Positions 12,001 to 15,000 of a stretch of 64,000 nt of DNA are shown here, one piece after another. Source of the DNA: Candidatus Poribacteria bacterium (GTDB lineage Bacteria > Poribacteria > WGA-4E > WGA-3G); assembly GCA_965215265.1 (NCBI GenBank), contig OZ244048.1, positions 1,088,001-1,152,000 on the forward strand. The letters run 5' to 3'. The position numbers were made by a program. Every line of letters starts with the position of its first letter. Within the stretch, counting starts at the first letter, position 1.

Positions 12001-15000
12001 GCAGTTTCTCTTCCGGCCCGTATTGGCTTTCTCCTTTTGGGGTGATTTTGCCGACGAGAATACTGCCGGGTCCGACAACGCTGCCGACACGGACGATGCC
12101 TTCTTCATCTAGCTGGGCGAGTCGCTGTTTTTTGACATCCGGGATATCGCGTGTTATTTCTTCGGGGCCCATTTTTGTGTCACGGGCCTCGACGATAAAT
12201 TCTTCAATATGGATCGAGGTGAAGGTGTCTTTGCGAATTAAGCTTTCGCTAATGAGAATGGAGTCTTCGTAGTTGTGTCCGCCCCAGGGCATGTAGGCAC
12301 ACAAGATGTTCCGTCCTAGTGCAAGCTCGCCGTGGTGTGTCGAGGGTCCGTCGGCAAGGATGTCGCCGGTGGAGACCCGGTCTCCGACAGAGACGACGGG
12401 ATGTTGATGGAAACACGTGCCGCTGTTACTCCGTTTGAATTTGTGGAGCTTGTAGACATCGTATCCCATTTCGCTTTTCTGTGTTTCTCCGATGTCTGCA
12501 TGGAGTGCTTCGCCTGTACGGATAATGATGTCATCGGCGGAGACGCTGACGACCGTGCCTTCTCGCTTTGCGATGCAGAGCGCACCGGAGTCACGTGCAG
12601 CGTGGATTTCCATGCCGGTGCCGACGAGGGGTGCCTCTGGACATAGCAGGGGTACCGCTTGGCGTTGATGGTTTGCGCCCATCAATGCGCGGTTGGCATC
12701 TTCATGTTCTAGGAATGGAACGAGTGCTGCGGAGACACCGACTATCTGTTCGGGGGCGATGCCGATATAATCAATCTCTGGGAGTGGGAGGTTGAAGACA
12801 TCTTCGCCTTTGCGCACCGGCAGCTTTTCGTCTTTTTCGTCTATGTCCGTAATTTGGTTGCCCTTGGTGCCCCGGGGTGCGATTTTTGCTGCGATTTTCA
12901 TGGTGGCTTCTTTGCCCGCGGTGAGGTATTCGATCGTGGGATGCGGTTTGCCATTAACAACTTTCCGATAAGGGGTTTCTAAGAAGCCGTATGGGTTGAC
13001 TCTCGCATAGCAGGCCAGTGAGGCGATAAGTCCTATTGAGGGTCCTTCTGGGGTTTCTAATGGGCACACGCGTCCGTAATGGGTATGATGTACGTCTCGA
13101 ACAGCGGCGGTTGCGCGGTCGCGTTGTAATCCACCGGGGCCGATCGCGGAGATACGTCGCTTGTGCGTCAATTCGTCAAGAGGGTTTATCTGTTGCATAA
13201 ACTGCGAGAGTTGGTTTGAGCCGAAGAATTCGCGTAGGGCTATCATCAGTGGCTTCGGGTTTATCAGTGCTGTCGGCACACAGGTGCGCATATCCACGGT
13301 GTTCAGTCGCTCCCGTGTGGCGCGTCGTATCTGTAAGAGTCCGATGCGGAATTGGTTTTCGAGAAGTTCGCCGATGACCCGGACGCGTCTATTGCCCAGA
13401 TGATCCAAGTCGTCTTTCGGTGCCTCTTCATTCTGGACATCTATCAAGTAATGGAGTGTTGCAGCGATGTCCTCTGGGCGGAGTGTGCGTTCATTTTCGC
13501 CGGGCTGTCCGTATATCGGGATGTGTGAGAGTTTTTCGTTGAGTTTATAGCGGCCGACCTGTCCTAAGTCATACCGATGAGGGTCGAAGAGGTGCCATTG
13601 TAGTTGCTTGTGTGCCTGCTCTACGTTTGGCGGGTCGCCTGGCCGGAGGACGGACTGGATTTCAAGCAATGCCGTTTCTTGCCTGCTCCGATTCGGTGGA
13701 TAGTCGGCGGCTTTGTCCCGTTCCAGGGTGTTGCGCAAGTAGCGGAGTTGTTTGGCCTTTTGTGGGTTGAGCACGGTTATCGCTTCAATGCCGGCACTTC
13801 GCAGGCGTTCGAGTTCTGTCTCAGTGAGGAGAGTGTTGGCTGTGAGCAGGGTTTCCCCCGTTTCAGGGTGTTTTATGGGTGCTGCACAGACGCTTCCGAC
13901 GATTTGGCTATTTTCGTCTATCTTGGTACCGTCAACGCTGAGGTTTTCTCTGTTTTGGATACCAGGCTGCGCGAGTTTTTCTGCAGAAAAGCTGCTGGGG
14001 TACTGGGCGTTCATGTGGGCGTATTCTGTGTCGGTGAGGAGCTGGCCGGGTTTTAACGGGCATCCGCTGTTGATGATTGCGAGGACGCGGTGTAAAGGTT
14101 GACTGGTCCAGTGTTTCGACTTTCTGCGGAACTTGGTGCGTTCTGCGGGGGTGAGTATTTGTCCAACCTTCAATGGTATGTCGTCGTCGACGGTTGTGAC
14201 TTGATAGCAGGACTCTGTTTGAATGCCGGGGTAGCAGTTGCGCAGCTGCCGGTAGTCCTTATTTGGTATGAAATCCCCGGTGGCGTGGGGGAAGTCGGGA
14301 TGAAATACGGCTGTAACCTGCCGGATGTGTTCGAAGGTCGTCCCTTTCCATTTCCGACGATGTGCGGCTTGTTGACGTGGGGTGAGTATGTCGCCTGGCT
14401 TTACGGGTGTATCAGCCGCGCTGACATCTACTACTTTGTATAGGACATCGGTGGTAAAGCCGGGGTAATCATTTTTAGCGTTTTTATGTTCGGATTTTGA
14501 GAGGAGTTGTCCGGGGCTGTATGGGCATGGTGCGGCGGTGATGTGTGTGACGCGCCAGCCGGATAAGACGGCTTGCTCGGGTTGTGCGAAGAGTTGTAGT
14601 ATATCTGCATCGGTTTCCCATCCGAGCGCGCGAAGTAGGACAGTTGCAGGCATTTTTCTGCGTTTGTTGAGTCGGACATATACCTGGTCTTTTGCGTCTG
14701 ACTCAAATTCAACCCAGGCACCGCGGTAGGGGATAATCTGCGCGGTCGGGGTATTCTGTCCTGAAGTCATGGCTTTTTCAAGAAAAATTACGCCGGGTGA
14801 CCGGTGAAGTTGGTTGACGATAACGCGTTCACTGCCATTGATAATAAAGGTCGCGGTTTCTGTCATCAATGGGACATCGCCAAAATAGACATCCGATTCT
14901 CGGATATCCACGATGTGGGGTTCATCGCTGTCGGCATCCTTCTCACAAACGAACAACCGGAGACGGGCAGTGAGGGAGACCTGGTAATTGACACCGCGTG

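Follow-up and report, generated by a model that had tools for sequence, protein, structure and literature searches.

How one small protein module came to be repeated in both large subunits of an RNA polymerase is the question raised by the rpoB-rpoC locus of a Candidatus Poribacteria bacterium. The locus lies in a stretch of 64,000 nucleotides (nt) of contig OZ244048.1 (assembly GCA_965215265.1, positions 1,088,001 to 1,152,000 of the forward strand), which is referred to below as the window and in whose coordinates all positions are given. Both genes are on the minus strand, rpoB followed by rpoC. The former (10631..15280) encodes the beta subunit as an open frame of 1549 amino acids (aa) beginning with TTG, which contains six Pfam Rpb2 domains and matches beta chains of the PDB at E = 0. 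The latter (4379..10129) encodes the beta-prime subunit as an open frame of 1916 aa, also beginning with TTG (the true start is possibly a few codons downstream), with five Pfam Rpb1 domains. Both proteins are 200-500 residues longer than their E. coli matches in the PDB. According to an initial annotation, made from the DNA sequence alone, some 17 copies of a module of ~39 aa have colonised the two subunits, five of them approximately at the beta lobe/SI1 site and the others in the trigger-loop/jaw insert of beta-prime; these copies were thought to be related to a native copy in the clamp, and the two arrays to form, perhaps, a joint structure. The analysis described here points to the clamp element of the enzyme itself as the probable source of both arrays, which are confined to a single family.

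One module in two subunits

The five beta units lie in tandem in RpoB aa 242-436 (13973-14557) and are 38-40 residues long. The span originally assigned to them (13985-14557, minus strand, i.e. RpoB aa 242-432, directly after the stretch A-L-G-W-E-T-D-A-D-I-L-Q-L-F) was correct at its right edge, but the fifth unit runs 12 nt past the left one, to 13973. A hidden Markov model (HMM) built solely from eight RpoC units, which were seeded by coordinates, matched all five beta units (independent E values between 4e-7 and 7e-10, 16-26 bits each) as well as the native clamp copy (RpoC aa 188-208, E 5e-5). Against the same HMM the whole beta insert scored 117.5 bits, compared with a maximum of 10.4 in 500 shuffles (299 of which gave any score), and a BLASTP comparison of RpoC with RpoB yielded 86.7 bits over 237 columns. 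The claim of one module in two subunits, which hinged on profile similarity between the beta and the beta-prime units, is borne out by these matches.

The native copy (RpoC aa 163-215; 9485..9643, minus strand), recognised by HMM and profile matches, corresponds to beta-prime-bD2, which PMC11515920 (2024) describes together with bD7 as the small left claw (sLC; CATH 3.30.60.280). In hhalign comparisons, 65 non-redundant units of the family matched a profile of this clamp element, prepared from nine sister-family genomes all lacking arrays, at 98.5% (E 3.7e-15, 35/37 columns), whereas the match of the unit profile to 41 BBM2 elements of beta and beta-prime was 68% (E 4.9e-5, 27 columns). Because of this difference we consider the units, on profile evidence, to be translocated paralogues of the native beta-prime clamp element, as the initial annotation had supposed, and not BBM2 repeats. 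The consensus turn of 13 aligned units of the window (five of them from beta) is P-G, not T-G-E, and the unit length is ~38 residues versus ~52 for BBM2. The unit HMM recovered the native clamp copy in 9/10 RpoC proteins of the sister families and in 23/25 of the family itself. The units are thus profile-homologous to beta-prime-bD2 and are located in beta (five, in beta-i4) and in the trigger loop (about twelve), not at the canonical clamp/jaw position of the sLC. A further candidate, the tip of native beta-i9 with its G-D-x-x-T-x-E-L-L turn, was considered as a half-unit and rejected (5% in hhalign against the units).

The lobe array

The surroundings of the beta units were modelled as RpoB aa 226-516 (291 aa), with the help of 15 orthologues. 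The mean predicted local distance difference test score (pLDDT) was 83.3, with values of ~90-96 across the array. In each unit the model predicts two strands, the second one short, with a loop between them and a helix of ten residues after them (pLDDT >90), and each junction between units is spanned by one long strand of 10-12 residues; according to this model the array would be one continuous rigid body.

The ends of the model (residues 1-22 and 235-291) were superposed in VIA searches on E. coli beta 219-352 (Z 8.4, root-mean-square deviation 3.1, 82 residues). The array site is therefore the beta-lobe insert SI1/beta-i4, in agreement with the site named initially. The same ends also matched MoeA (Z 8.1), beta-prime 814-912 and amino-acid decarboxylases, matches that together constitute the membership list of the BEAN domain as given in PMC11515920. 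Since it was only the two ends, taken jointly, that matched in these searches, and they make up the BEAN part of the model, the five units are nested between the two halves of a single BBM2/BEAN domain of beta-i4. The N-terminal part, or first bracket, of this domain is RpoB aa 226-241 (14558..14605), assigned by the superposition and by relatives without the array. The array is followed by a linker (aa 437-456; 13913..13972) that is predicted to be disordered (pLDDT <50 at model residues 215-232) and then by the second bracket, a BBM2 element with a T-G-E motif (aa 457-510; 13751..13912) that can be aligned with E. coli beta from its residue 290 onwards. All these features are on the minus strand. 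An alignment with relatives lacking the lobe array places the insertion at exactly this point, and within the beta insert of the window T-G-E BBM2 character is limited to the C-terminal element. That element has orthologues in 34 relatives and is 38% identical (BLASTP) to RpoC aa 899-943, which belongs to the BBM2/BEAN domain of beta-prime (RpoC aa 897-948; 7286..7441, minus strand) detected by phmmer with the beta element as query.

The E. coli counterpart, beta-i4 (SI1, dispensable region I), is described in PMC2939025 as a tandem pair of BBM2 motifs located on the beta lobe. The insert of the window shares its insertion site and ends with one T-G-E BBM2 element. It differs in that the repeated unit is a copy of the clamp element and not BBM2, in that the array is enclosed by the BBM2/BEAN domain rather than placed in tandem after it, and in its charge: the array is basic, whereas E. 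coli beta-i4 is described in the same paper as highly acidic.

The trigger-loop array

The second insertion occupies RpoC aa 1003-1652 (5174..7123, minus strand). On one side of it the sequence can be aligned with E. coli beta-prime 899-976 (trigger-loop helix 1 and the first SI3 strands), and on the other with 1100-1165 (the last SI3 strands and helix 2). The insertion is therefore inside SI3, at the trigger-loop site that had been proposed, and the middle of SI3 has given way to ~580 residues of units. About twelve units were identified by HMM matches between the SI3 end strands (RpoC aa 1042-1621; 5267-7006, minus strand): nine are clear and three or four degenerate, so that with the five of beta the estimate of ~17 units was a reasonable one. 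The model of the insert (pLDDT 82.8) contains 12-13 unit helices.

An ordinary SI3 of ~190 aa has been kept in the sister families, which belong to the same order. Only the end strands of the insert align with SI3 of E. coli and of these families, the interior being made of clamp-type units. A Foldseek comparison of the model with cyanobacterial SI3 (8emb_D) gave no significant match (E 0.18), and remnants of barrels in the interior are still compatible with the data. The RpoC proteins of genus g9 (L118, L120) are 1623-1691 aa long, and the SI3 of genome G027 carries a different insert, rich in charged residues and without units.

SI3, or beta-prime-i6, is reported to contain two sandwich-barrel (SBHM/HABAS) domains in E. 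coli and ~9 in cyanobacteria (PMC2939025; PMC11515920; PMC10895346). The insert of the window lies in the same place between the two trigger-loop helices, retains the SI3 end strands, has an acidic surface and, with 650 aa, is similar in size to the cyanobacterial form; it is unlike SI3 in having an interior of about twelve clamp-type units and no recognisable sandwich barrels.

Two loops of the insert (5559-5590 and 6537-6568; RpoC aa ~1190 and ~1516), both predicted to be disordered, share the motif E-E-G-F-G-W-A-G, and their 32-nt coding sequences are identical at 31/32 positions. The motif was not found in RpoB or RpoC of 34 relatives, the same genus included, and the pair looks like a recent small duplication or conversion.

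Distribution and history

We compared rpoB-rpoC of 24 further genomes of the same family (f1) and of ten genomes of three sister families, and scanned them with the unit profile. These relatives came from a whole-genome search; a pattern scan of contigs with the beta insert had given none. The trigger-loop array, of 8-14 units, was present in all 25 family genomes (the window included), the lobe array (site A) in 15 of them, an array in the beta external-1 domain in two (G011 and G015) and one at the tip of beta-i9 in nine, all belonging to genus g5. Eight of the 25 had no units anywhere in beta, as was the case for all ten sister-family genomes, in which each of the four arrays was absent (0/10).

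In a tree of RpoB (1249 conserved columns) the 15 genomes with a lobe array formed exactly one clade (support 100), spanning four genera, and the other ten its sister clade. In the unit tree the trigger-loop units constituted positional orthogroups that span both clades of the family, which indicates that the beta-prime array is older than their split.

Three orthogroups (a, b and c) were distinguished among the lobe units, which are ordered a-b-c in genera g4 and g5 and a-b-a'-b'-c in g2 and the genus of the window. In the window these are unit 1 (a; aa 242-280, 14441..14557), unit 2 (b; aa 281-320, 14321..14440), unit 3 (a', duplicate of unit 1 with a support of 89; aa 321-358, 14207..14320), unit 4 (b', duplicate partner of unit 2 with a support of 98; aa 359-397, 14090..14206) and unit 5 (c, in a clade of five orthologues supported at 98; aa 398-436, 13973..14089), each located by HMM matches on the minus strand. 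The five-unit order arose by tandem duplication of two units. A unit tree, as had been suggested, could resolve the lobe orthogroups, but its backbone did not name the donor.

In a survey of 151 genomes of the phylum, 7-21 unit matches were found in the genome of the window and in 97 of 99 other family genomes; the two exceptions are 90% and 81% complete. None of the 51 genomes from eight other families had more than one unit match, the single match being the native copy. Across these 151 genomes the arrays are confined to one family. Within the genome of the window the units occur in rpoB and rpoC only. A library of 1.84 billion representative proteins contained only 54 that scored E <= 0.001 with the unit profile, and when the 19 highest-scoring long ones were scanned with Pfam, the strongest proved to be beta and beta-prime chains and fragments of them. 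The nearest named relative, a metagenome-assembled genome labelled Candidatus Poribacteria, has the architecture of genus g5. This restriction to one family, the nesting in the BBM2/BEAN domain and the further beta sites in relatives are points that go beyond the initial annotation.

Selection and charge

The ratio of nonsynonymous to synonymous substitution rates (dN/dS) was computed in eight close species pairs. For the unit codons of beta (six pairs) it ranged from 0.098 to 0.387, for those of beta-prime (eight pairs) from 0.049 to 0.265, and for the rest of RpoB and RpoC from 0.054 to 0.251. Since the values of the units are near those of the remainder of both proteins, the arrays are conserved coding sequence under purifying selection and not decaying filler.

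The two arrays of the window differ in charge: the beta array is basic (+7, isoelectric point 9.3), while the trigger-loop insert is acidic (-28 for aa 1003-1652; -23 from the first to the last unit).

Further sites and other carriers of the module

In two genomes (L102 of G011, L106 of G015) an insert of ~470-520 aa with units lies in the beta external-1 domain (RpoB aa ~760-1040). The two inserts are 60% identical to one another and are absent from the closest relatives in the RpoB tree (G003 for one; G013 and G023 for the other), a pattern that means several losses or transfer between species.

All nine genomes of genus g5 (L096, L100, L103, L105, L107, L109, L111, L113 and L115) carry an insert of ~300 aa at the tip hook of beta-i9, the SI2 of E. 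coli (RpoB aa ~1100-1480). It contains two or three units and a further domain without a Pfam match. A nuclease-like domain beside the units was suspected at this site, and the idea was dropped when P0022 gave no Pfam match even at E <= 1.

The RpoC proteins of three genomes (L094, L108 and L110 of G003, G017 and G019; 2276-2304 aa) are lengthened by ~400 residues upstream of the trigger-loop insert. Four unit matches of G003 (aa 1155-1274) fall within this extra stretch, which would be a further beta-prime site.

Among the library proteins scanned, only the RpoC sequences P0004 (2210 aa) and P0014 (596 aa) contain a genuine domain of restriction-endonuclease fold (PF18741, REase_MTES_1575; E 1.8e-12 and 1.7e-17, respectively), which in P0004 lies in the region that the trigger-loop insert occupies in RpoC of G002, a protein of similar size. 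Pfam gave no PF18741 match in RpoC of the window.

Three library proteins, P0013 (837 aa), P0015 (938 aa) and P0025 (452 aa), are not polymerase subunits. They have C-terminal tetratricopeptide repeats (TPR), 3-5 units alternating with shorter half-units and, judged by eye, a membrane segment. P0013 and P0015 gave only sub-threshold matches to the nuclease-fold family HSDR_N_2 (E ~0.001-0.003), and scanning with the unit profile revealed no gene of this TPR type in the genome of the window.

The RpoC protein P0021 (2029 aa) presents another picture. The unit profile matches seven stretches of it, where the native clamp region has been amplified in place; by reading of the sequence there are ~8 repeats of ~95 aa, which precede the C-terminal part of Rpb1 domain 1. 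It resembles the system described here in that the same clamp element has been multiplied, and differs in its longer repeat, which comprises the element and its flanking helices and has spread neither to further sites nor into the second subunit.

Enlargement of these beta sites in the classical way occurs in sister-family genomes: beta-i4 of genus g10 (L119, L123) has two or three tandem BBM2 elements, and one BBM2-like element is found at the beta-i9 tip of L124 (G037).

Finally, the intergenic region between rpoB and rpoC contains two direct repeats of 131 nt (10114-10244 and 10276-10406), 98% identical and spaced by 162 nt, and a weaker, degenerate third copy at ~10517-10603. The TTG taken as the start of rpoC lies in the first copy.

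Origin and possible roles of the arrays

The best explanation of these observations is, in our opinion, a lineage-specific accretion of domains in RNA polymerase from its own clamp element, and we consider this probable. The ancestor of the family would have copied the element into SI3, the sandwich-barrel insert of the trigger loop, where it was amplified to about a dozen copies. Later, the ancestor of four genera would have gained units in the adjacent gene rpoB, where they lie in the loop connecting the halves of the single BBM2/BEAN domain that beta-i4 (the SI1 of E. coli) contains. This lobe array presumably began with three units (a-b-c), and tandem duplication of a-b would have produced the five present in the lineage of the window. 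The order of these events is suggested by the distribution of the arrays.

The re-use of small domains of the polymerase as inserts is a general theme of PMC11515920, and the growth of the enzyme by BBM2/BEAN domains in beta and by sandwich barrels in beta-prime is described there and in PMC2939025. In the Results of PMC11515920, extra sLC copies are described only for Firmicutes and the Deinococcus-Thermus group, within beta-prime-bD2, bD4, bD5 and bD7; unlike these rare variants, the units described here are in beta, in the trigger loop and in long arrays, none of which figures in that text.

As regards function, the trigger-loop array rides on a mobile catalytic loop and, by analogy with SI3 of E. 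coli and cyanobacteria, would be expected to tune the folding of this loop and, through it, catalysis and pausing. The lobe array would lengthen the opposite wall on the downstream-DNA/secondary-channel side, where it may serve as a docking surface, as a DNA contact (being basic in the window) or as a partner of the acidic trigger-loop array. A rigid lobe rod of 200 residues and a trigger-loop body of 650 residues would together enlarge the downstream-duplex side of the enzyme. This placement is taken from E. coli: the elongation-complex model of PMC2939025 shows both beta-i4 and the second SI3 (beta-prime-i6) barrel turned towards the downstream duplex without contact.

Several observations weigh against this account or limit its reach. 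The backbone of a 98-unit IQ-TREE tree (37 columns) was unresolved, with 54 of 95 forks open, and the donor unit could not be identified from this tree or from a 348-unit FastTree tree. A single clade comprising all 21 lobe units is compatible with the approximately unbiased (AU) test (p 0.57), so both a one-unit seed and the copying of several units at once are possible. The direction from beta-prime to beta is suggested by the distribution only, as the tree cannot separate a trigger-loop donor from the clamp copy. In ten of the 25 family genomes the trigger-loop array is not accompanied by one in the lobe. The identity of fold between the units and the native clamp element is derived from profiles, not from superposition, and no solved structure matches the array: the best match touching the units was 5uh7_B, the beta-prime insert of M. 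tuberculosis (Z 4.1, 41 residues), and Foldseek searches of the PDB with the lobe and the trigger-loop models returned nothing at E <= 0.001, a result that we do not take as evidence of a new fold. The lobe array is acidic in 9/9 genomes of genus g5, and its basic charge is accordingly not a conserved feature, which weakens the ideas of DNA contact and of charge pairing alike. The roles proposed above for both arrays are inferred.

The units might also be nothing new, i.e. the tandem BBM2 repeats already predicted for beta-i4, which according to earlier sequence work cited in PMC2939025 holds one to six of them. The site is indeed beta-i4, sister genus g10 expands it with two or three BBM2 copies, and the profiles of the two kinds of repeat are weakly similar (68%, E 4.9e-5). 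This reading is nevertheless highly improbable, given the far better match to the clamp element (98.5%, E 3.7e-15), the P-G turn in place of T-G-E, the length of ~38 against ~52 residues and the limitation of BBM2 to aa 457-510. Another suggestion is that the lobe and trigger-loop arrays touch and form an arch or gate above the channel of the downstream DNA. It is favoured by the E. coli model, in which beta-i4 and the second barrel of beta-prime-i6 both face the downstream duplex (PMC2939025), by the opposite charges in the window (+7 for the lobe array; -28 for the trigger-loop insert, -23 from its first to its last unit) and by the limitation of lobe arrays to genomes that already have trigger-loop arrays. 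The co-occurrence of the arrays holds in one direction: no beta array was found without a beta-prime array, but 10/25 family genomes have the latter and no lobe array, which means that the beta-prime array does not need that of beta. The charge complementarity is, moreover, lost in the nine acidic lobe arrays of genus g5. A complex prediction for the trigger-loop (650 aa) and lobe (291 aa) inserts, run without controls, scored 0.00 and is neutral on this point. On balance, such a joint structure appears unlikely.

Two other possibilities concern the mobility of the module. The arrays may be tolerated passengers: a module that is in frame and readily duplicated would spread by recombination among permissive loops of the surface and bring the enzyme no benefit. 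All the sites used (beta-i4, the beta-i9 tip, beta external-1 and SI3) are known as permissive from PMC2939025 and PMC11515920, the copy number varies (three or five lobe units, 8-14 trigger-loop units), one beta site is occupied in 2/9 species of a genus and not in their nearest relatives, and the module is also present in non-polymerase TPR proteins. We nonetheless doubt that the arrays are of no benefit: the dN/dS of the units (0.05-0.39) is near that of the rest of both proteins (0.05-0.25), the trigger-loop units are kept as positional orthologues throughout the family, no loss of the trigger-loop array is seen among the 25 rpoC genes of the family that were examined, and the fold is predicted with high confidence. 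It is also conceivable, if quite unlikely, that the 38-residue unit is a self-propagating, in-frame protein cassette and not a product of ordinary duplication. It occupies at least four sites in two adjacent essential genes, and is also found in unrelated membrane TPR proteins, within one family; in some relatives it adjoins a restriction-endonuclease-fold domain in the same insert, and this domain could introduce the breaks from which new copies start; and one beta site is shared by two non-sister species whose closest relatives lack it.

Domain accretion from the clamp element, which we prefer to these alternatives, would make that element a third building block for polymerase inserts, added by this family to those already known. 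A search of the literature at the level of abstracts, extended by the Results of PMC11515920 but not covering its Table S4, Lane & Darst 2010 or Iyer 2004, gave no earlier description of clamp-type units as long arrays or at sites in beta or the trigger loop, and within the reach of that search this is the first case of the clamp element in beta and the trigger loop. The trigger-loop insert is as large as the cyanobacterial one and is made of a different module. It may therefore be regarded as a natural and independent experiment on how a mobile catalytic loop carries a load of 650 residues. The relatives provide a dated series of intermediates, from no array through an array in the trigger loop only to the addition of three lobe units, of five lobe units and of further sites, which makes the function of the inserts testable by comparison within one family.

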